Numbered from the stretch's first letter, positions 2,771 through 61,931 are shown. The stretch is DNA of 64,000 bases from Nanobdellota archaeon (GCA_024654505.1 JANLHN010000003.1:132314-196313), one strand, 5' to 3'. A program made the numbers and translations. The notes: generated by a model from the sequence alone, not told the origin.

Positions 2771-4135
2771 ATGAAATTCAGAAAGCCTACAAAGACTCTA
2801 TCTGGTGTTGCGCCCGTGGCGGTTATGCTTCCTCCTAGAAGGTGTGACCATGGGGCATGTACTTACTGTCCTACCTTAAAGGCTCCACAATCATATACTC
2901 CGGAGAGTCCGGCTGTTCTTAGAGCAAGGGCGTGTGGATATGCGCCTTTTGAGCAAGTTAAAGTTAGATTGGAAACCCTTAGTGTAATGGGACATCCAAC
3001 AGATAAGATTGAATTGATTATAATGGGTGGAACCTTTCTTTCTTATAAAAAAGATTTTCAATTTGATTTTATCAAGAAATGTTATGATGCCCTTAATGAA
3101 AAAGTTTCTAGGTCTCTTGATGAGGCAAAAAAATTAAATGAGACTGCGAAACACAGGTGTACTGCCCTTTGTATTGAAACAAGACCAGATGTCTGTACGG
3201 ATAAAGATGTTGCCAATATGTTAATGTGGGGGGCGACAAGAGTTGAGTTGGGTGTTCAAGCAATTGATGATGATATTTATAAAAAGGTTAATAGATGCCA
3301 TGACGTTCAGGCAGTTGTCGATGCTACTAAACGGTTAAAAAAGGCCGGATTTAAAATTGGTTACCATATCATGCCAGGGCTTCCCGGGAGTAATCCAAAG
3401 AAGGACATTAAAATGTTCAAAGAACTTTTTTCTTCTGAAAAGTTCAAACCAGACCAAATAAAGATTTACCCTTGTCAGGTCTTAAAAGGTGCTTTCCTTG
3501 AAGAGATTTATTATGGTGGAGAGTATTTGCCTTATTCGAAAGAACAAACAAAAGAGATTATTATTAAGATGCTTAAGTTGACCCCAAGGTATTGTAGGAT
3601 TATGAGGATTATGAGGGAAATTCCATTAGATTACTTGGTTGCAGGTATAAAGAATATTGATATGAGGCAAGACATAGAATCGGAGATTCGGCCAGGAAAA
3701 GTTAAAATTAATGAGATTCGTTTTCGAGAAATTGGTTTTGCATTAAGAGATGGTAGAAGAGTCAATACAGATATTAAAATAAAAACAACAAGTTACCCTG
3801 CCTCTTCAGGAAAAGAGTTTTTTATTGAAGCAGTTAACAAAGATGATGTTCTTTTTGGTCTTTTAAGGCTCAGACTTGAGAAAGATAAAAAAACCCCTGC
3901 GATGGTTCGTGAGCTTCACGTTTATGGACCTACACTTAAGATTGGAGAAAAATCTATAGAAAAATGGCAACATAAGGGCCTTGGGAAGAGACTAATGATC
4001 GAAGCCGAAAAGATAGCCAAGAAGAACGGTTATAAAGAGATTAGAGTAATATCTGGTATTGGTGTCAGAGAGTATTATAAAAATTTGGACTATGTTTTAG
4101 ATAGTAATGGAATTTATGTTAAGAAGGATTTATGA
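2771..4135 (+). CDS. elp3: Elp3 tRNA uridine(34) modification enzyme (radical SAM + GNAT)
   Basis: The radical-SAM Cys cluster (CDHGACTYCP) and the IIMGGTFLS motif are present. A C-terminal GNAT acetyltransferase region follows. Length (454 aa) and domain order match archaeal Elp3. Confidence 0.85.
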   Translation: MKFRKPTKTLSGVAPVAVMLPPRRCDHGACTYCPTLKAPQSYTPESPAVLRARACGYAPFEQVKVRLETLSVMGHPTDKIELIIMGGTFLSYKKDFQFDFIKKCYDALNEKVSRSLDEAKKLNETAKHRCTALCIETRPDVCTDKDVANMLMWGATRVELGVQAIDDDIYKKVNRCHDVQAVVDATKRLKKAGFKIGYHIMPGLPGSNPKKDIKMFKELFSSEKFKPDQIKIYPCQVLKGAFLEEIYYGGEYLPYSKEQTKEIIIKMLKLTPRYCRIMRIMREIPLDYLVAGIKNIDMRQDIESEIRPGKVKINEIRFREIGFALRDGRRVNTDIKIKTTSYPASSGKEFFIEAVNKDDVLFGLLRLRLEKDKKTPAMVRELHVYGPTLKIGEKSIEKWQHKGLGKRLMIEAEKIAKKNGYKEIRVISGIGVREYYKNLDYVLDSNGIYVKKDL

Positions 4136-9930: not shown

Positions 9931-9972
9931 TACGCCCACACCCTGCTCAAAGATACGCCCACACCAGGAATC
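9929..9972. repeat. Direct repeats mimicking a tRNA 3' end (GATACGCCCACACC...)
   Basis: The plus strand reads gatacgcccacaccctgctcaaa + gatacgcccacaccaggaatc. Each copy is the reverse complement of a ...GGGTGTGGGCG tRNA 3' acceptor end. Confidence 0.6.
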
Positions 9973-10058
9973 TGTTCGCATTTCACTCTTCTCTCAAAAT
10001 ATTTGTAGTAGTTCGAGAAGAGCAAAGATGCTCAAACCTGGACCCAGGTTCGAAGATA

Positions 10059-10175: not shown

Positions 10176-10435
10176 ACGCCCACACCCTGCTCAAAGATAC
10201 GCCCACACCCTGCTCAAAGATACGCCCACACCCTGCTCGCCTTTAGGTCTGCAATAATCTTTTCATTTGTTCAGACCTAAAAGCTCGGCACCCATTTGGT
10301 GTACCTCTGTTGAGGCAAATCGAAGGTTCGATGTCCGGGAAAACGCCCACACCCTGCTCGCCTTTAGGTCTGCAATAATCTTTTCATTTGTTCAGACCTA
10401 AAAGCTCGGAATCGAAGGTTCGATGTCCGGGAAAA
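10176..10435. repeat. Array of tRNA 3'-end mimics: 23-nt tandem units plus two 92/122-nt hairpin-containing units
   Basis: The 23-nt unit acgcccacaccctgctcaaagat is repeated 2.7 times (10176-10238). Two longer units follow, each starting acgcccacaccctgctcgcc and containing the inverted repeat TAGGTCTG...CAGACCTA. The proximal unit (10222-10342) carries a 30-nt insertion. Confidence 0.65.
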
Positions 10436-10516
10436 CGCCCACACCCGGAATCGAACCGGGATGCCAGTGAAGGCCCGGTTTTCTAGACCGGTGCAATACC
10501 ATTATACGATGTGGGC
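10436..10516 (-). tRNA. Class II tRNA (long variable arm), nominal anticodon AGA (Ser-like; atypical A34)
   Basis: An 81-nt cloverleaf with acceptor GCCCACA/TGTGGGC. The anticodon stem is CCGGT/ACCGG with loop CTAGAAA. The variable arm has a GCC..GGC stem and the T arm is CCCGG-TTCGATT-CCGGG. The first 25 nt are near-identical to tRNA-Ser(GGA). Confidence 0.5.
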
Positions 10517-14800: not shown

Positions 14801-15061
14801 TATTATAATATTATAAGAGGGCCGGCACACGCCGCGTGTGGTCGGCCCAATCATTGCAGCCTAAGCGCAATGACTATGATGTTTTTGGAAATTATTTTGA
14901 GTTAATAAATCAATCGCTCTGCTCACTATTCACTCTTGTGATTTAATTAATAGTCAAGAGCAAATTAGGAAGTTTAGTAATGTTGCAAACTCTTTGGAGG
15001 GGTTGGTTAGATTATTTATGCGCGAAGCGCTCTTTAGGAATATTTGTTGTGAAGCAACCTA

Positions 15062-18254: not shown

Positions 18255-18420
18255 AATTTAAGGCCCTTTAAAAAGCTTGTGTTTGTTGTTATTATTGAGT
18301 GATTAAATCTTCTTAAATAATCAAAGGAGTTAAACTTAAAAACTAAATCTCCAAAGAATATTTATGCCTCAATAGTATAAAGTAACATCCTAGATGTTGT
18401 ATGAATACAATTGAAGCAAA

Positions 18421-18492
18421 GCCTCAATAGTATAGTGGTTAGTACGTGGCCCTGTCGCGGCCAAGATCCGGGTTCAATCCCCGGTTGGGGCG
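18421..18492 (+). tRNA. tRNA-Asp (anticodon GUC)
   Basis: A 72-nt cloverleaf with acceptor GCCTCAA/TTGGGGC. The anticodon stem is TGGCC/GGCCA with loop CTGTCGC. The T arm is CCGGG-TTCAATC-CCCGG and the discriminator is G. Confidence 0.8.
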
Positions 18493-36712: not shown

Positions 36713-36769
36713 CTCCTGATAAAATTAGAATAATTAACTTTATATATATTCTGATTTGATAAGATTCAT

Positions 36770-36887
36770 GCGTGGGTAGTATAAAGTAACAAACAAGTTG
36801 CTTCGAGAATACAACCCACAAATAAATCGCGTGGGTAGTATAAAGTAACGGCATAGCCGTTTCGAGAATACAACCCCCAAATAAATC
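36770..36887 (+). repeat. Two 59-nt-periodic pseudo-5'-end copies of tRNA-Gly (GCGTGGGTAGTATAAAGTAAC + spacer)
   Basis: Copies start at 36770 and 36829, and the real tRNA starts at 36888. In each copy the first 14 nt equal the tRNA 5' end, followed by AAAGTAAC instead of the D-loop. Confidence 0.7.
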
Positions 36888-36959
36888 GCGTGGGTAGTAT
36901 AGTGGTTATTATTCGACGTTGCCAACGTTGGGGCCCGGGTTCGATTCCCGGCCCGCGCA
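36888..36959 (+). tRNA. tRNA-Gly (anticodon GCC)
   Basis: A 72-nt cloverleaf with acceptor GCGTGGG/CCCGCGC. The anticodon stem is CGACG/CGTTG with loop TTGCCAA. The T arm is CCCGG-GTTCGATT-CCCGG and the discriminator is A. Confidence 0.8.
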
Positions 36960-37032
36960 TATTGGGGAATCGAACCCTGTGAGAGATTGGCCTCTGAGAG
37001 GTCTGCAACTTGTTGCCGAGGCCCGCGCATAT
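36960..37032 (+). repeat. 58-nt element plus duplicated tRNA-Gly 3' end (ggcccgcgcatat)
   Basis: The 13-nt direct repeat lies at 36950-36962 and 37020-37032. The intervening segment begins GGGGAATCGAACCC, the reverse complement of a T-arm, and contains the palindrome CCTCTGAGAGG. Confidence 0.6.
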
Positions 37033-45429: not shown

Positions 45430-45539
45430 GACAGCGACGGAGAATTTGTTTTTTTGTTTTTTGGATAAATCCCCGGCCGGCTCACAATTGGTGTACTTCT
45501 GCTGAAGCAAATCGAAAGTTCGATTCCGATATATTAGAA
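45430..45539. repeat. tRNA-Tyr downstream element with duplicated 3' end and conserved stem-loop module
   Basis: aatccccggcc (45468-45479) duplicates the tRNA 3' end at 45537-45550. The module TTGGTGTACTTCTGCTGAAGCAAATCGAAAGTTCGAT (45488-45529) matches 10296-10337 with compensatory stem changes. Confidence 0.55.
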
Positions 45540-45610
45540 TCCCCCCGGCCAGAATCGAACTGGCACATATCGGGCTACAGCCGAATGTTCTACCATTGAA
45601 CTACGGAGGG
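45540..45610 (-). tRNA. tRNA-Tyr (anticodon GUA)
   Basis: A 71-nt cloverleaf with acceptor CCCTCCG/CGGGGGG and the archaeal C1-G72 pair. The anticodon loop is CTGTAGC and the T arm is GCCAG-TTCGATT-CTGGC. Discriminator is A. Confidence 0.75.
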
Positions 45611-45668
45611 TTTGTCACCTACGGAATTCTCATGAAACGGCTATGCCGTTACTTTGAACTACGAAGGG
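45611..45668 (-). repeat. Pseudo-5'-end copy of tRNA-Tyr (CCCTTCGTAGTTCAAAGTAAC + spacer)
   Basis: The copy lies 58 nt upstream of the tRNA 5' end and contains GGCATAGCCGTTTC, also found upstream of tRNA-Gly. Confidence 0.6.
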
Positions 45669-45744
45669 TTATAATTTAACCTAGAATAGGGGATTTTTAA
45701 GGGTTGTGGGTTAGATTATTAAACCTACTTCTTCTTTCCTAATT

Positions 45745-51803: not shown

Positions 51804-52799
51804 CTAATCTTCTTTTAGAGATTCTGATTCGTCTTCTTTTTTATCTTCTGCTTGTTCCTTTAGAAATTTAAGTTCTTCTTCTTTTTTATCTAATTTTGCT
51901 TTTGCTTCTTCATGATTCTCTACACTCTTTAGGGCTTTTAGTTCTTTTTCTTCCTCGGCTAATTTTGCTTTTGCTTTTCTTACTTCTTCTTCTTGTTTAT
52001 CGTCTCCCCTTAGAGTTCTTAGTTCTTTTTCTTCCTCGGCTAATTTTGCTTTTGCTTTTCTTACTTCTTCTATTTGTTTCTTCCCTTCTTTTATAATCTT
52101 TATTTCAAGTTCTTTTTTTCTTATTTGTTCTTGAATCTTTTTTAATTCTCTGTTGCTTGCAGGAGTTGCTACATCTATAACACTTGAACCTTTGTAAAAC
52201 ATCTTTACTAAAAGGAAAACAAAAACAAGTGCAAAGATTATGCCTATAAACCAGATATATCCCTTTAGTGAACCATCATTATTTGTAAAAATTGCTTTGC
52301 CAGTTATTGGGAGAATCTCTTCTTCAACTACATCTGCTGGAACATCAGTGGTATTTTCTACAACAGATTCTTCCTCGGTTATGTTCTCTGGAACCTCGGT
52401 GACCTCTTCGACAATTGGTTTTTCCGCCACTTTTTTTGCTAACTCTTCCATTGCTATAGCATCAATATTCATAATACACTCTCCATTGGAAACACACTCA
52501 AAGAGTAATGGATTGGCAGTGCTTCCCTCAAGGCTTGCATCATTTACCTTACTGGTTCCCTTCCAGATTCTTATTTTATACTTGACATCTGGTTCATTCA
52601 AGGAAAAGAATGTTTTTGATATACGCCCCTCTCCATCTGCAGTGCCCCTTAACTCATTTAAATAGGTCCCTCCATCAGAAGAGAATATTTCAAAGACAAC
52701 ATAATTGCTTGGTTCTGTTATTATGGTTATTGGACCATTCATGGCAAAGACGCTGCTAAAAAACATTAGGAAGAGGAATGCTATCAACAGCTTTTTCAT
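51804..52799 (-). CDS. Secreted/membrane protein with cytoplasmic K/E-rich tandem repeats
   Basis: A signal peptide, a TM helix (IWFIGIIFALVFVFLLV), and 27-aa repeats EEVRKAKAKLAEEEKEL. Confidence 0.45.
   Translation of the reverse strand: MKKLLIAFLFLMFFSSVFAMNGPITIITEPSNYVVFEIFSSDGGTYLNELRGTADGEGRISKTFFSLNEPDVKYKIRIWKGTSKVNDASLEGSTANPLLFECVSNGECIMNIDAIAMEELAKKVAEKPIVEEVTEVPENITEEESVVENTTDVPADVVEEEILPITGKAIFTNNDGSLKGYIWFIGIIFALVFVFLLVKMFYKGSSVIDVATPASNRELKKIQEQIRKKELEIKIIKEGKKQIEEVRKAKAKLAEEEKELRTLRGDDKQEEEVRKAKAKLAEEEKELKALKSVENHEEAKAKLDKKEEELKFLKEQAEDKKEDESESLKED
51939..52070. repeat. 81-bp tandem direct repeat (x1.6) inside CDS
   Basis: tagttctttttcttcctcggctaattttgcttttgcttttcttacttcttc appears at 51939 and 52020. 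Confidence 0.6.
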
Positions 52800-54154: not shown

Positions 54155-54262
54155 GAGAATGGCCCCACCAAGAATCTTCTCACAAAATGCATTTCACAAT
54201 TAATATTTTTCTGTTTGATTGTTCAAAGCGTTTTGTTCGCCTTGGGCACCCAAGTTCGAGAA
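54155..54262. repeat. tRNA-Val downstream element + duplicated 3' end (gagaatggccccaccaagaatc)
   Basis: The 22-nt direct repeat lies at 54155-54176 and 54258-54279. The element contains the palindrome CTTGGGTGCCCAAG, built from the tRNA T-stem sequence. Confidence 0.6.
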
Positions 54263-54333
54263 TGGCCCCACCAAGAATCGAACTTGGGCATTCTCGGTGT
54301 AAACGAGATGTTCTGCCATTAGACTATGGGGCC
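54263..54333 (-). tRNA. tRNA-Val (anticodon UAC)
   Basis: A 71-nt cloverleaf with acceptor GGCCCCA/TGGGGCC. The anticodon stem is TCTCG/CGAGA with loop TTTACAC. The T arm is CCAAG-TTCGATT-CTTGG and the discriminator is A. Confidence 0.8.
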
Positions 54334-54387
54334 ATAGCTCCGTTGTCTTCATGAAACATCTATGATGTTCCTTTAGACTATGGGGCC
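54334..54387 (-). repeat. Pseudo-5'-end copy of tRNA-Val (GGCCCCATAGTCTAAAGGAAC + spacer)
   Basis: The copy lies 54 nt upstream of the tRNA 5' end. AAAGGAAC replaces the D-loop. Confidence 0.6.
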
Positions 54388-54457
54388 GTTTAGAGGAGAA
54401 CAAATTCTTTGCTTTTAAAACTTATGATTGGGGAATAGTGATAACATTTAAATAAGA

Positions 54458-60648: not shown

Positions 60649-61026
60649 TCATACTTTCACACATCACGACATCCACACACAAAACCAGTAACGACATGAG
60701 CTTTACCGCCCATCTCAACACTCCAGAAACTCGTGGATAAGCAAGATACTTTCAAATGGAAACTTTTGAGAGAATCTATGTGCTAGTCGTGACTGTGTTT
60801 CTGAAACAAATGCGTCGGAATATCTTAGAAATAAGTGTCTGACGTATGCTCTGATGGTGAAATACGTGTCTTAAGTCACTTAGCTTATACAAAGCGCTGG
60901 ATGTCTCCTTGAGGGAGGGCTTCCAGAGAAACGGGGTGTTCCTGTAGTGGCTGTTTTTTGTCGCCCTGATGGTCGGGGTGATTCTTTTTATCGGCTGAGA
61001 CGAAGGCGTCTCGGGAAGGAGTTCGC

Positions 61027-61272
61027 GTGATTAGGATGGGCAACGGACATAGGAGTTCGGAGAAGAAGGAGGGGAAGGTGAAGATAGTGAGGACACCTGC
61101 TCCCCCTTCTGATGAGGCACTGCTTCAGGAGCGGCTGCGCCAGATGGATGTGGCTTCCGGGAAGCTGCCCAGGATGGGGCGGAAGAAGGGGAACAACGGC
61201 TTCAACGGGGAGTCGAACGGCCAGCAGCTAGATGACCCGCTCCGTTCGATGATCCTCCCCAACCACCTCTAG
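61027..61272 (+). CDS. Small basic ORF in GC island
   Basis: GTG start with AAGGAG upstream. 81 aa. Confidence 0.3.
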   Translation: MIRMGNGHRSSEKKEGKVKIVRTPAPPSDEALLQERLRQMDVASGKLPRMGRKKGNNGFNGESNGQQLDDPLRSMILPNHL

Positions 61273-61281
61273 AAGGGAGGG

Positions 61282-61557
61282 GTGATGGGACGGAAGAAGC
61301 AGTGCTATGGGAGAGAGGGAGTCTGTTTGACTCCTAATTGTCCCTACGCCCTGGGTTGTATCCAGATCTGGGGCAGAGACCGACTCCTTAAGAAGAGGGG
61401 AGTTGGGGTAGAACAAAGCGTGCCGAGGGGCTCGGTGCGTTCCAAGGGCCCGCAGGGCAAAGTGTCCCGGGAAAGAAGAATTGGAGGGAGGATAGTAAGT
61501 GAGCAGACCGATTTTCTCAACACCATCTCAGATGATGGTGGGACTCCCAGAAGTTAG
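61282..61557 (+). CDS. Small Cys-containing ORF in GC island
   Basis: CYGREGVCLTPNCPYALGC in the N-terminus. 91 aa. Confidence 0.3.
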   Translation: MMGRKKQCYGREGVCLTPNCPYALGCIQIWGRDRLLKKRGVGVEQSVPRGSVRSKGPQGKVSRERRIGGRIVSEQTDFLNTISDDGGTPRS

Positions 61558-61843
61558 TGGGGGGAGGAAGGTCTCGGTGGACCGCGCCCTGGAAGTCCTG
61601 GGGTTGACGGCATCCACCTTCAGAGACAAGATACAGAGGGAGGAAGGTTTCGACATGGATAACCTCGTTGCTGGGGGGAAGAAGTTCTCTGCGAAGGGGG
61701 CGCCTCTGGCTGGGGGGGAATTCCTCCTCCGGGTCTTCATCGGAGGAAACATCGAGGCCAGAGTTCTCCTGGACCCTGAACGACAGAGGGTACTCTCAAC
61801 TCAGGAAGTCCAGATGACTAGAGAGGGGGTAGTGGCCCTGTAA
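61499..61843 (+). CDS. Excisionase/AlpA-like HTH protein (in GC island)
   Basis: VSVDRALEVLGLTASTFRDKIQREEGF fits the Xis/HTH_17 pattern L-s-x-x-E-a-a-x-l-L-G-v-S-x-s-T-x-y-R. Confidence 0.35.
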   Translation: MSRPIFSTPSQMMVGLPEVSGGRKVSVDRALEVLGLTASTFRDKIQREEGFDMDNLVAGGKKFSAKGAPLAGGEFLLRVFIGGNIEARVLLDPERQRVLSTQEVQMTREGVVAL

Positions 61844-61872
61844 GAGGTCATGGGCTCCTAGACGGGACGATG

Positions 61873-61931
61873 CTGGGGGTGTGGGCTAGGGAGGAAGTTC
61901 TGCCTACACCCCCAGACAGGCTGATTTTTTT
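61873..61931 (+). terminator. GC-rich hairpin (10-bp stem) followed by T7
   Basis: CTGGGGGTGT...ACACCCCCAG then ...ctgattttttt. The stem includes GGGTGTGGGC, identical to the tRNA-Ser 3'-end core. Confidence 0.35.

Follow-up and report, generated by a model that had tools for sequence, protein, structure and literature searches.

Why do the first 14 nucleotides (nt) of several tRNA genes recur, exactly or nearly so, a short distance upstream of the genes themselves? The question is raised by a 64,000-nt stretch of a Nanobdellota archaeon genome (GCA_024654505.1, JANLHN010000003.1:132314-196313), referred to here as the window, in which four out of six tRNA genes have a 54-59 nt unit, five copies in all, upstream of them. 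With about 34% G+C and a gene for a thermosome, the window is archaeal; the closest homologues of the thermosome come from metagenome-assembled genomes (MAGs) named Nanoarchaeota or Pacearchaeota, and one of them, labelled 'MAG: archaeon', is 100% identical. We find that the pseudo-5' end does not stand alone: it supplies one side of an extended, irregular hairpin with a conserved core clamped inside, and this module of ~55 bases is found, in this DPANN archaeon with its small genome and in related archaea, ahead of many tRNA genes and of a few ribosomal-protein genes. With good confidence we regard the units as a genuine, conserved and transcribed family of hairpin leaders.

All six tRNA genes of the window are contiguous and intact according to ARAGORN and Rfam, scoring 51-64 bits against RF00005. 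As the initial annotation had claimed, tRNA-Gly is preceded by two exact copies of its nt 1-14 with a period of 59 nt (at 36770 and 36829, offsets 118 and 59), and exact 14-nt copies are also found before tRNA-Asp (18366, offset 55) and tRNA-Val (54387, minus strand, offset 54). For tRNA-Tyr the claimed offset of 58 was right (45668, minus strand), but the copy matches the gene at only 13 of 14 positions (CCCTTCG versus CCCTCCG). Exact 14-mer self-matches 40-70 nt upstream of six tRNA genes are expected by chance 3.7e-7 times, and we reject a chance origin of the copies on this ground. The 8-nt motif AAAG(T/G)AAC that was said to accompany them is indeed there, but the shared element is far longer: a 26-nt core, then the complement of the D-stem and acceptor 5' strands. 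The motif occurs 11 times on both strands of the window, five times directly after a pseudo-5' end, and the spacer strings cited as common to the units (GGCATAGCCGTTTC and GAGAATACAACCC) were found in the sequence.

An alignment of 19 distinct units, taken from the window and from other genomes, gives a single plan: a copy of tRNA nt 1-14 (X'), the 26-nt core (M), a stretch complementary to nt 13-1 (antiX), a 2-11 nt linker and the real tRNA. Written as RNA, M consists of AAAG(U/G)AAC, a variable hairpin of 3 bp/3 nt/3 bp and GUU(U/G)(C/U)RWGA; after it come the complement of the D-stem 5' strand (columns 40-43), A-A and an imperfect complement of the acceptor 5' strand (columns 46-52). Covariation among the 19 units pairs X' nt 1-13 with antiX in a helix that encloses M, and M itself is built of a 3x4 internal loop (AAA opposite RWGA), a stem G-N-A-A-C/G-U-U-N-C and three variable, compensating base pairs. 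Standard pairs fill 87.4% of the cells versus 34-45% with the 3' partners slid by 1-3 columns; the covariation score is 0.48 versus 0.07-0.14 for the slid partners, double changes are seen at 13 of the 18 pairs, and RNAalifold without guidance gives identical helices. Mismatches are position-specific, with pairs 6:47, 10:43 and 13:40 always intact and pair 5:48 mismatched in 10 of the 19 units; position 18:34 is U.U in most tRNA units and A-U in the locus L044, where it lengthens the core stem. The conserved secondary structure is thus backed by compensatory changes, as in cis-acting structured leader RNAs, with the caveat that G.U pairs show no bias over A.C.

The covariance model built from these 19 units (R1) was run on the whole window with filters off, and only the five tRNA-linked units scored above 15 bits. 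The first Gly unit (36770-36828, plus strand; 60.6 bits) has X' at 36770-36783, an atypical core (AAAGTAACAAACAAGTTGCTTCGAGA) and antiX ATACAACCCAC, and its AACAAGTTGC is complementary to GCAACTTGTT in the Gly trailer (37006-37015). The second (36829-36887, plus strand; 66.2 bits) consists of X' (36829-36842), M (36842-36867), antiX (36868-36880) and a linker (36881-36887), after which the intact tRNA-Gly(GCC) occupies 36888-36959 on the same strand (ARAGORN, Rfam). The Asp unit (18366-18420, plus strand; 60.9 bits) is likewise made of X' (18366-18379), M (18379-18404), antiX (18405-18417) and linker (18418-18420), directly followed by tRNA-Asp (18421-18492, plus strand). On the minus strand lie the Tyr unit (45611-45668; X' matching at 13 of 14 positions; 64.2 bits), upstream of tRNA-Tyr (45540-45610), and the Val unit (54334-54387; 66.1 bits), upstream of tRNA-Val(TAC) (54263-54333). 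Repeat comparison shows the copies within the window to be homogeneous for the second Gly unit and Tyr only. Repeats in the window are confined to tRNA flanks, for which reason a dispersed family of miniature inverted-repeat transposable elements was rejected. Upstream of the two tRNA-Ser genes no unit was found; they have arrays of 3'-end copies instead.

The position of the promoters bears on whether these units are transcribed. In 14 of the 16 first units a TATA-like 8-mer starts at -33 to -29 from the first base of the first pseudo copy, and tRNA genes without a unit keep the same TATA spacing relative to their real +1. In the window such boxes are TTTATATA of the tRNA-Gly transcription unit (36739-36746, plus strand; -31 to -24 from the first pseudo-5' end), TTAAAAAC for Asp (18336-18343, plus strand; -30 to -23 from the Asp pseudo-5' end) and those upstream of the Tyr and Val leader units (45693-45700 and 54413-54420, both on the minus strand). 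Since the archaeal TATA box is centred ~26 nt upstream of the transcription start, this spacing predicts a start on or next to nt 1 of X'. On this basis the unit is probably transcribed, as a 5' leader with its first nucleotide in a base pair. Of the two readings put forward in the initial annotation, a promoter/leader module derived from the start of the gene and a conserved mechanism that makes the copies, the former is supported in its leader part: measured from the pseudo copy the TATA has the canonical distance, measured from the tRNA it does not, and the hairpin is conserved and covarying.

How far does the module extend beyond this genome? A scan of 185,579 species genomes with a degenerate pattern of the core gave 13 matches, six in archaeal MAGs (one labelled Candidatus Woesearchaeota, the others simply 'archaeon') and seven in bacteria. 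All six archaeal matches have the full architecture and lie before tRNA-Gln, Gly(TCC), Tyr, Arg and Val, while the seven bacterial matches lack the unit architecture, a number close to the ~9 chance matches estimated beforehand from the information content of the pattern. Scanning metagenomes with the pattern gave 12 matches, with the architecture in 11 and with three tandem units before tRNA-Gln in two. Outside the window the total comes to 17 further archaeal loci (on MAG and metagenome contigs), before tRNA Gln, Val, Gly, Tyr and Arg, and the core is found at no fewer than eight different genes; in viral contigs the pattern scans found no leader unit. The concern that the pattern might be missing at other tRNA genes is not borne out, as it is present at four of the six in the window, nor do the copies sit inside one recent duplication: with units at four places across 36 kb of the window and at 17 independent loci of archaea outside it, a single recently duplicated segment is rejected. 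Another locus, L007, contains (3937-4120) a second, truncated copy of tRNA-Arg(TCG) with a promoter and leader unit of its own; it has a ~65-nt insert after the anticodon arm, lacks the 3' acceptor strand and lies directly upstream of the intact leader-bearing gene.

The module reappears in front of ribosomal-protein genes. R1 matches the S28e 5' untranslated region (UTR) with a score of 41.7 bits in ten contigs from metagenomes, all of which bear one near-identical locus, and on L042, a syntenic contig of a relative whose thermosome is 81% identical, it matches the 5' UTRs of S28e (28.4 bits) and of L7Ae (21.1 bits). In these mRNA leaders the stretch duplicated as X' is the ~13 nt around the start codon of the gene that follows, and antiX is complementary to it; the stretch reads ATGGCTAAAGAAA in L044 and ACAATGGYAAAAG in L042, each with two occurrences and a complementary antiX; in the L7Ae leader of L042, antiX TTTTCATTTTG perfectly complements CAAAATGAAAA, immediately 5' of the ATG. 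A canonical k-turn (CC-AAU-GA...GA-GG) is found upstream of L7Ae in all five lineages examined and shares the UTR with M in L042. Its hairpin is at ~14973-15000 (minus strand) in L042 and about 60-100 nt before the L7Ae ATG in L054, L058 and L065, which extends the reported motif of L7Ae autoregulation to these DPANN lineages. As a separate observation, the copied start codon of the S28e leaders opens a short upstream open reading frame (ORF) through the module (L042 14515-14563, minus strand; L044 2375-2440, plus strand), with the stop-terminated peptides MVKVTFKKFHVAILS and MAKETFKMFHESIFIGKIKYG. In L042 it stops 4 nt short of the real ATG, which in L044 it overlaps; this placement suggests possible translational coupling.

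What could such a unit do? The reading we favour, about which our belief and our doubt are evenly balanced, is that it forms a structured 5'-terminal clamp, the antiX arm of which could instead sequester the true 5' end. Judging by promoter geometry, transcription would start at or within ~2 nt of the first base of the first X', and the helix of X' nt 1-13 with antiX, which the covariation supports, would then clamp the 26-nt M. Because antiX complements both X' and the identical real 5' strand, two foldings compete, and X' may be seen as a cis decoy. As long as the clamp held, the tRNA would fold and a 5' endonuclease (RNase P or a protein-only equivalent) would cut off the leader of 52-63 nt; if antiX moved onto the real 5' strand, folding and processing of the tRNA would be blocked, or, in the mRNAs, access to the start region. 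In the weakest step of this scheme M would be the recognition site, or handle, of a putative trans factor that fixes one of the two states. With the start-codon regions of S28e and L7Ae sharing the design, the module could link tRNA maturation to ribosomal-protein expression.

The two foldings are close in energy. For nascent transcripts made of the leader and the first 14 nt of the tRNA, the X':antiX clamp versus the hairpin of antiX with the real X is calculated at -13.8 versus -11.6 kcal/mol for Asp, -16.3 versus -14.0 for Gly, -16.1 versus -14.6 for Val and -15.2 versus -14.8 for Tyr, a gap of 0.4-2.3 kcal/mol over the four tRNAs. A 5' endonuclease is needed in this lineage, because in L004 tRNA-Gly and tRNA-Leu form a dicistron with only 2 nt between them. 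This locus (L004 5381-5612, minus strand) comprises a leader unit, tRNA-Gly(TCC) with a canonical intron of 20 nt, the 2-nt spacer and tRNA-Leu(CAA), in one apparent transcription unit.

Several observations weigh against a regulatory clamp. On L042 both tRNA-Gly(GCC), 71/72 identical to that of the window, and tRNA-Tyr are without the unit, and their TATA stands at -31 to -24 from the real +1; tRNA-Val(TAC) of L014 also lacks it behind the same promoter sequence (aagttttaaaagcaaa), whereas the window and L022 carry it. Since orthologous tRNA-Gly, Tyr and Val genes of relatives thus do without the unit and keep the promoter spacing, it is a dispensable presence/absence polymorphism that is gained or lost cleanly; not being essential, it is more easily seen as an insertion than as a regulator. 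If the two 14-nt direct repeats recombined, which would readily remove or multiply the unit, both the exact loss and the tandem amplification would be explained. Three further lineages have an L7Ae operon without the module. In the helices G.U cells (12) are about as frequent as A.C cells (11), so the pairing is not assignable to the sense RNA as against a DNA-level palindrome or inverted duplication. It is also troubling that the minimum-energy fold of the full Gly and Val precursors takes the pseudo copy for the acceptor stem, as the leader could then be harmful and not helpful. Finally, the transcription start, the removal of the leader and the RNA folding are all inferred from sequence, and M fits neither the k-turn nor the C/D consensus, its partner being only postulated.

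The 3' ends of the tRNA genes are duplicated as well. The repeat of the tRNA-Gly 3' end reported in the initial annotation is present 60 nt after the gene, but it is made up of 10 nt of the tRNA and 3 flanking nt (GGCCCGCGCATAT, 37020-37032). Such trailers follow five of the six tRNA genes of the window and, at other loci, genes for tRNA-Gln, Leu, Arg and Gly, whether or not a leader is present. They start with the 5' half of the T-arm in inverted copy, go on with a repeat of the T-stem 5' strand and an insert of 30-65 nt, and close with a copy of the tRNA 3' end. In the Gly trailer (36960-37032, plus strand) the inverted T-arm copy GGGGAATCGAACCC and a hairpin CCTCTGAGAGG precede the copied 3' end with its 3 nt, after which comes a T-run; the outermost helix predicted for the Gly transcript joins the first X' to this distal 3' copy (z = -4.6). 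The Tyr trailer (45470-45539, minus strand) contains a block ATCGAACYTTCGATTTGCYTCARCAGARGTACACCAA in common with the second Ser(AGA) trailer (unit B) and finishes with a degenerate 3'-end copy CCGGCCGGGGA. In the Val trailer (54160-54262, minus strand) T-arm nt 48-58 recur as their reverse complement and nt 46-53 as a copy; an insert of ~60 nt follows that holds the palindrome AAATGCATTT, and then nt 57-73 are copied. Together with 5 flanking nt this last copy forms a 22-nt direct repeat, the distal copy of which reaches 54155.

The tRNA-Ser genes carry whole series of such copies. The array behind tRNA-Ser(AGA) (10177-10435, minus strand) holds four successive 3'-end copies GGGTGTGGGCG, in two long trailer units and two 23-nt units, and the trailer of tRNA-Ser(GGA) with one 23-nt unit (9933-10058, minus strand) holds two; the distal copies of the latter gene pair perfectly with its 5' strand, while its own 3' strand has a C6.A67 mismatch. 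These arrays and the Ser(GGA) mismatch fit scars of integration or accretion better than the leaders do. Blocks are shared between the trailers of Ser(GGA) and of tRNA-Gln in L025 and, with the AAATGCATTT palindrome, between those of Val and of tRNA-Arg in L007. The Gly trailer is ~75% identical to a unit in L042 with a compensatory change (CCTC/GAGG to CCCC/GGGG), so at least this family is conserved. The trailers are several module families separate from the leaders, at least one of them conserved, and the pattern scans found no match to them in viral contigs. The tRNA-Ser at 10436-10516 (minus strand) has the anticodon AGA and lies 296 nt from tRNA-Ser(GGA); A34 is unusual for archaeal tRNA-Ser.

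Could the leader unit owe its existence to DNA and not to RNA? It may be a DNA-level insertion element or the product of a copying mechanism, which we consider possible though on the unlikely side: a ~40-nt module would land ~14 nt inside highly transcribed genes, duplicating their first ~14 nt as by target-site duplication and acquiring an inverted copy, so that the RNA hairpin would be a by-product and the unit would persist because the duplication restores an intact gene. This agrees with the filled and empty orthologous sites of identical promoter spacing, with direct duplications of ~13-14 nt in targets as unrelated as tRNAs, S28e and possibly L7Ae, with the same core at eight genes or more, the tandem arrays of 2-3 units, the patchy distribution in tRNAs and the L7Ae operon, and with G.U not exceeding A.C in the helices. 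A parallel may be seen in casposases, which make target duplications of 14-15 bp at tRNA genes. It should be noted, however, that the 3' arm of every copy matches its own target, and we know of no generic transposon end that does so; the arms are target-specific, and constant terminal inverted repeats were not found. No copies lie off gene 5' ends or antisense in the 64 kb searched with filters off, and none were found in viral contigs; the copies in the window are not homogeneous beyond the second Gly unit and Tyr, and their mismatches are position-specific, not uniform. Pfam scans of the ~30 larger ORFs of the window revealed no transposase, integrase, Cas1 or reverse transcriptase. Direct repeats of ~13-14 nt at tRNAs and S28e always begin at the first nucleotide or start region of the gene. 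An insertion of this kind and the clamp we favour are not exclusive, the one concerning the origin of the unit and the other its present role in RNA. A bolder version, improbable in our judgement, is a tiny self-propagating element that installs itself ~14 nt after the point where transcription begins in RNA genes of very high expression, both tRNAs and ribosomal-protein mRNAs, and copies that stretch both directly and inverted. If true, each copy would carry the complement of its own target while the gene is restored, which amounts to a target-templated, hairpin-forming insertion with no described archaeal counterpart.

Two further explanations start from the tRNA gene itself. That the duplications are attachment-site scars, left by integrative elements which, having recombined with the tRNA gene and duplicated a terminal segment of it, lost everything but their arms to later deletion, like remnants of cis-mobilisable elements, has hardly any probability in our view, even though tRNA genes are well-known sites of integration, archaeal islands are flanked by partial tRNA copies (PMC9897764), and a 5' tRNA fragment upstream of the full gene in Caldiarchaeum was traced to a recombinase-bearing element (PMC3293823). 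Direct repeats of tRNA segments do surround an insert here (their length is 13-14 nt for the 5' end and 10-22 nt for the 3' end), and among the trailers the Val repeat that runs 5 nt past the tRNA, the mismatched 3' strand of Ser(GGA) beside its perfect distal copies and the accretion-like 3'-end arrays all speak for scars. The leaders, however, have an insert of ~40 nt with an identical design at every site, which covaries with the tRNA and also occurs in mRNA leaders; over leaders and trailers the inserts measure 40-100 nt, the ~30 ORFs scanned with Pfam include no integrase, transposase or reverse transcriptase, neither kind of module was found in viral contigs, and the Gly trailer is preserved, with a compensatory change, in genomes that have thermosomes no more than 81% identical. 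A viral or plasmid origin was rejected, as four pattern scans of viral contigs gave only chance matches in coding DNA. It is also very unlikely that the pseudo copy is the true mature 5' end of a leaderless tRNA, the ~55 nt up to the second copy being an intron-like insertion in the D-loop that is spliced or retained. Promoter spacing would indeed have transcription begin with the first copy's first base, in full agreement with the leaderless genes, the mature sequence would be identical from either copy, and the minimum-energy folds of Gly and Val pair the pseudo copy with the 3' acceptor strand. Against this, no bulge-helix-bulge (BHB) motif was seen at any repeat register by inspection and in predicted folds (no dedicated BHB search was made), the linker varies from 2 to 11 nt, tandem arrays would require several splicing events, the same module occurs in mRNAs, and the dicistron of L004 implies endonucleolytic 5' maturation. 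BHB introns and split or permuted tRNAs were rejected for the window, all six tRNAs being contiguous and no BHB being visible in D-loop or T-loop by the same inspection and folds, which again were not a dedicated search. Introns of 49-74 nt are found in the tRNA-Tyr genes of L014 and L019 and in the near-identical gene of L005.

Does the unit belong to a known class of RNA? A comparison with Rfam 15 returned only tRNA matches, with no other family at the gathering threshold or at relaxed E-values, and hammerhead and other ribozyme cores, compared by eye, do not fit in the order of their conserved strands. A k-turn requires a 3-nt bulge followed by tandem G.A and A.G pairs (PMC6298567). An L7Ae-binding k-turn, first suggested by M in the L7Ae operon, was rejected, as AAA opposite RWGA, set between a G-C pair and the flanking helix, gives no tandem G.A and the opposing strand has no 5'-GA-3'; we dropped this identity also because a canonical k-turn stands upstream of every L7Ae examined. 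Box C/D RNAs have a C box RUGAUGA and a D box CUGA flanking a guide of 10-12 nt (PMC5539422). A cis guide of this type was rejected as well: only UCAUGA precedes the 13-nt complement, and no D box follows it, bar a chance UGA in Tyr.

Comparison with the nearest known systems is instructive. In Nanoarchaeum equitans the TATA box of tRNA genes sets the start at the first tRNA nucleotide. The present archaea, also DPANN-type, resemble it in that the TATA sets the start on the first tRNA-like nucleotide, with or without the unit; the difference is that here this nucleotide belongs to a 14-nt decoy and the intact tRNA begins 52-63 nt later, so that 5' processing would be required, whereas tRNA transcription in N. 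equitans is leaderless (PMC10941002, PMC3491384). tRNA fragments of integrative elements also leave a partial tRNA terminus as a direct repeat beside the complete gene (PMC9897764, PMC3293823), but those flank kilobases that include a recombinase, and here the insert is ~40 nt with a conserved core, a complement of its own target, covariation and occurrences in mRNA leaders. The L7Ae k-turn in the 5' UTR of l7ae mRNA is autoregulatory (PMC5539422, PMC6298567). Like M it is a small stem-loop in the 5' UTR of the same operon (L7Ae-S28e-L24e), and it is operated by a protein and changes access to the start region, as is proposed for M; M, however, cannot form the 3-nt bulge with tandem G.A/A.G pairs, and the k-turn is a separate element. 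Attenuators, T-boxes and the expression platforms of riboswitches are leaders with alternative pairings. The unit has in common with them that antiX would pair either with X' or with the real 5' end, with mutually exclusive outcomes, and differs in having no recognisable terminator or ligand domain, identical copies as competing partners, a tRNA fold and an mRNA start as targets, and archaeal hosts. Casposons target tRNA 3' ends and carry terminal inverted repeats and genes. Integration of the casposon or Cas1 type recalls our units in the ~14-nt duplication of a tRNA gene around a short insert, but here there is an arm complementary to the target, which casposons to our knowledge lack, and Cas1 was not seen among the ~30 ORFs of the window. 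A clamp in which the first 14 nt of the RNA that follows recur as a copy and as its complement is found in none of these nearest systems.

In the literature on DPANN tRNA genes and leaders, DPANN RNase P, leaderless or BHB-processed tRNAs and archaeal ribosomal-protein leaders we found no description of the module, and it appears to be undescribed. Normally tRNA 5' leaders are short, unconserved and unstructured, and hardly any RNA control of this kind is known for the archaeal translation apparatus. The leader described here, conserved and covarying, is shared by several tRNA species and by uncultured genomes of the Pacearchaeota/Woesearchaeota type, and it is seen again on ribosomal-protein mRNAs. 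The unit is best described as a structured cis-acting leader, and a categorically new insertion mechanism behind it is a real possibility. It could be a shared cis-regulatory device of the archaeal translation apparatus, or else the trace left by a mechanism of copying or insertion at the sites where transcription starts. In both cases R1 offers a searchable motif, and the filled and empty alleles are natural material for work on the start and processing of DPANN tRNA transcripts. The pseudo-termini can, moreover, mislead tRNA annotation and programs that call attachment sites or genomic islands.

Two minor features of the window are worth recording. At ~60900-61900 there is a G+C island (0.47 in a 2-kb window versus about 0.34 elsewhere) with one ORF of 114 amino acids (61499-61843) and no Rfam match, which may be foreign DNA or an unrecognised RNA. 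At 51825-52055 three imperfect direct repeats of 81 nt (one spaced by 69 nt) lie inside an ORF at 51804-52799 (minus strand) and probably encode a repetitive, charged protein segment.

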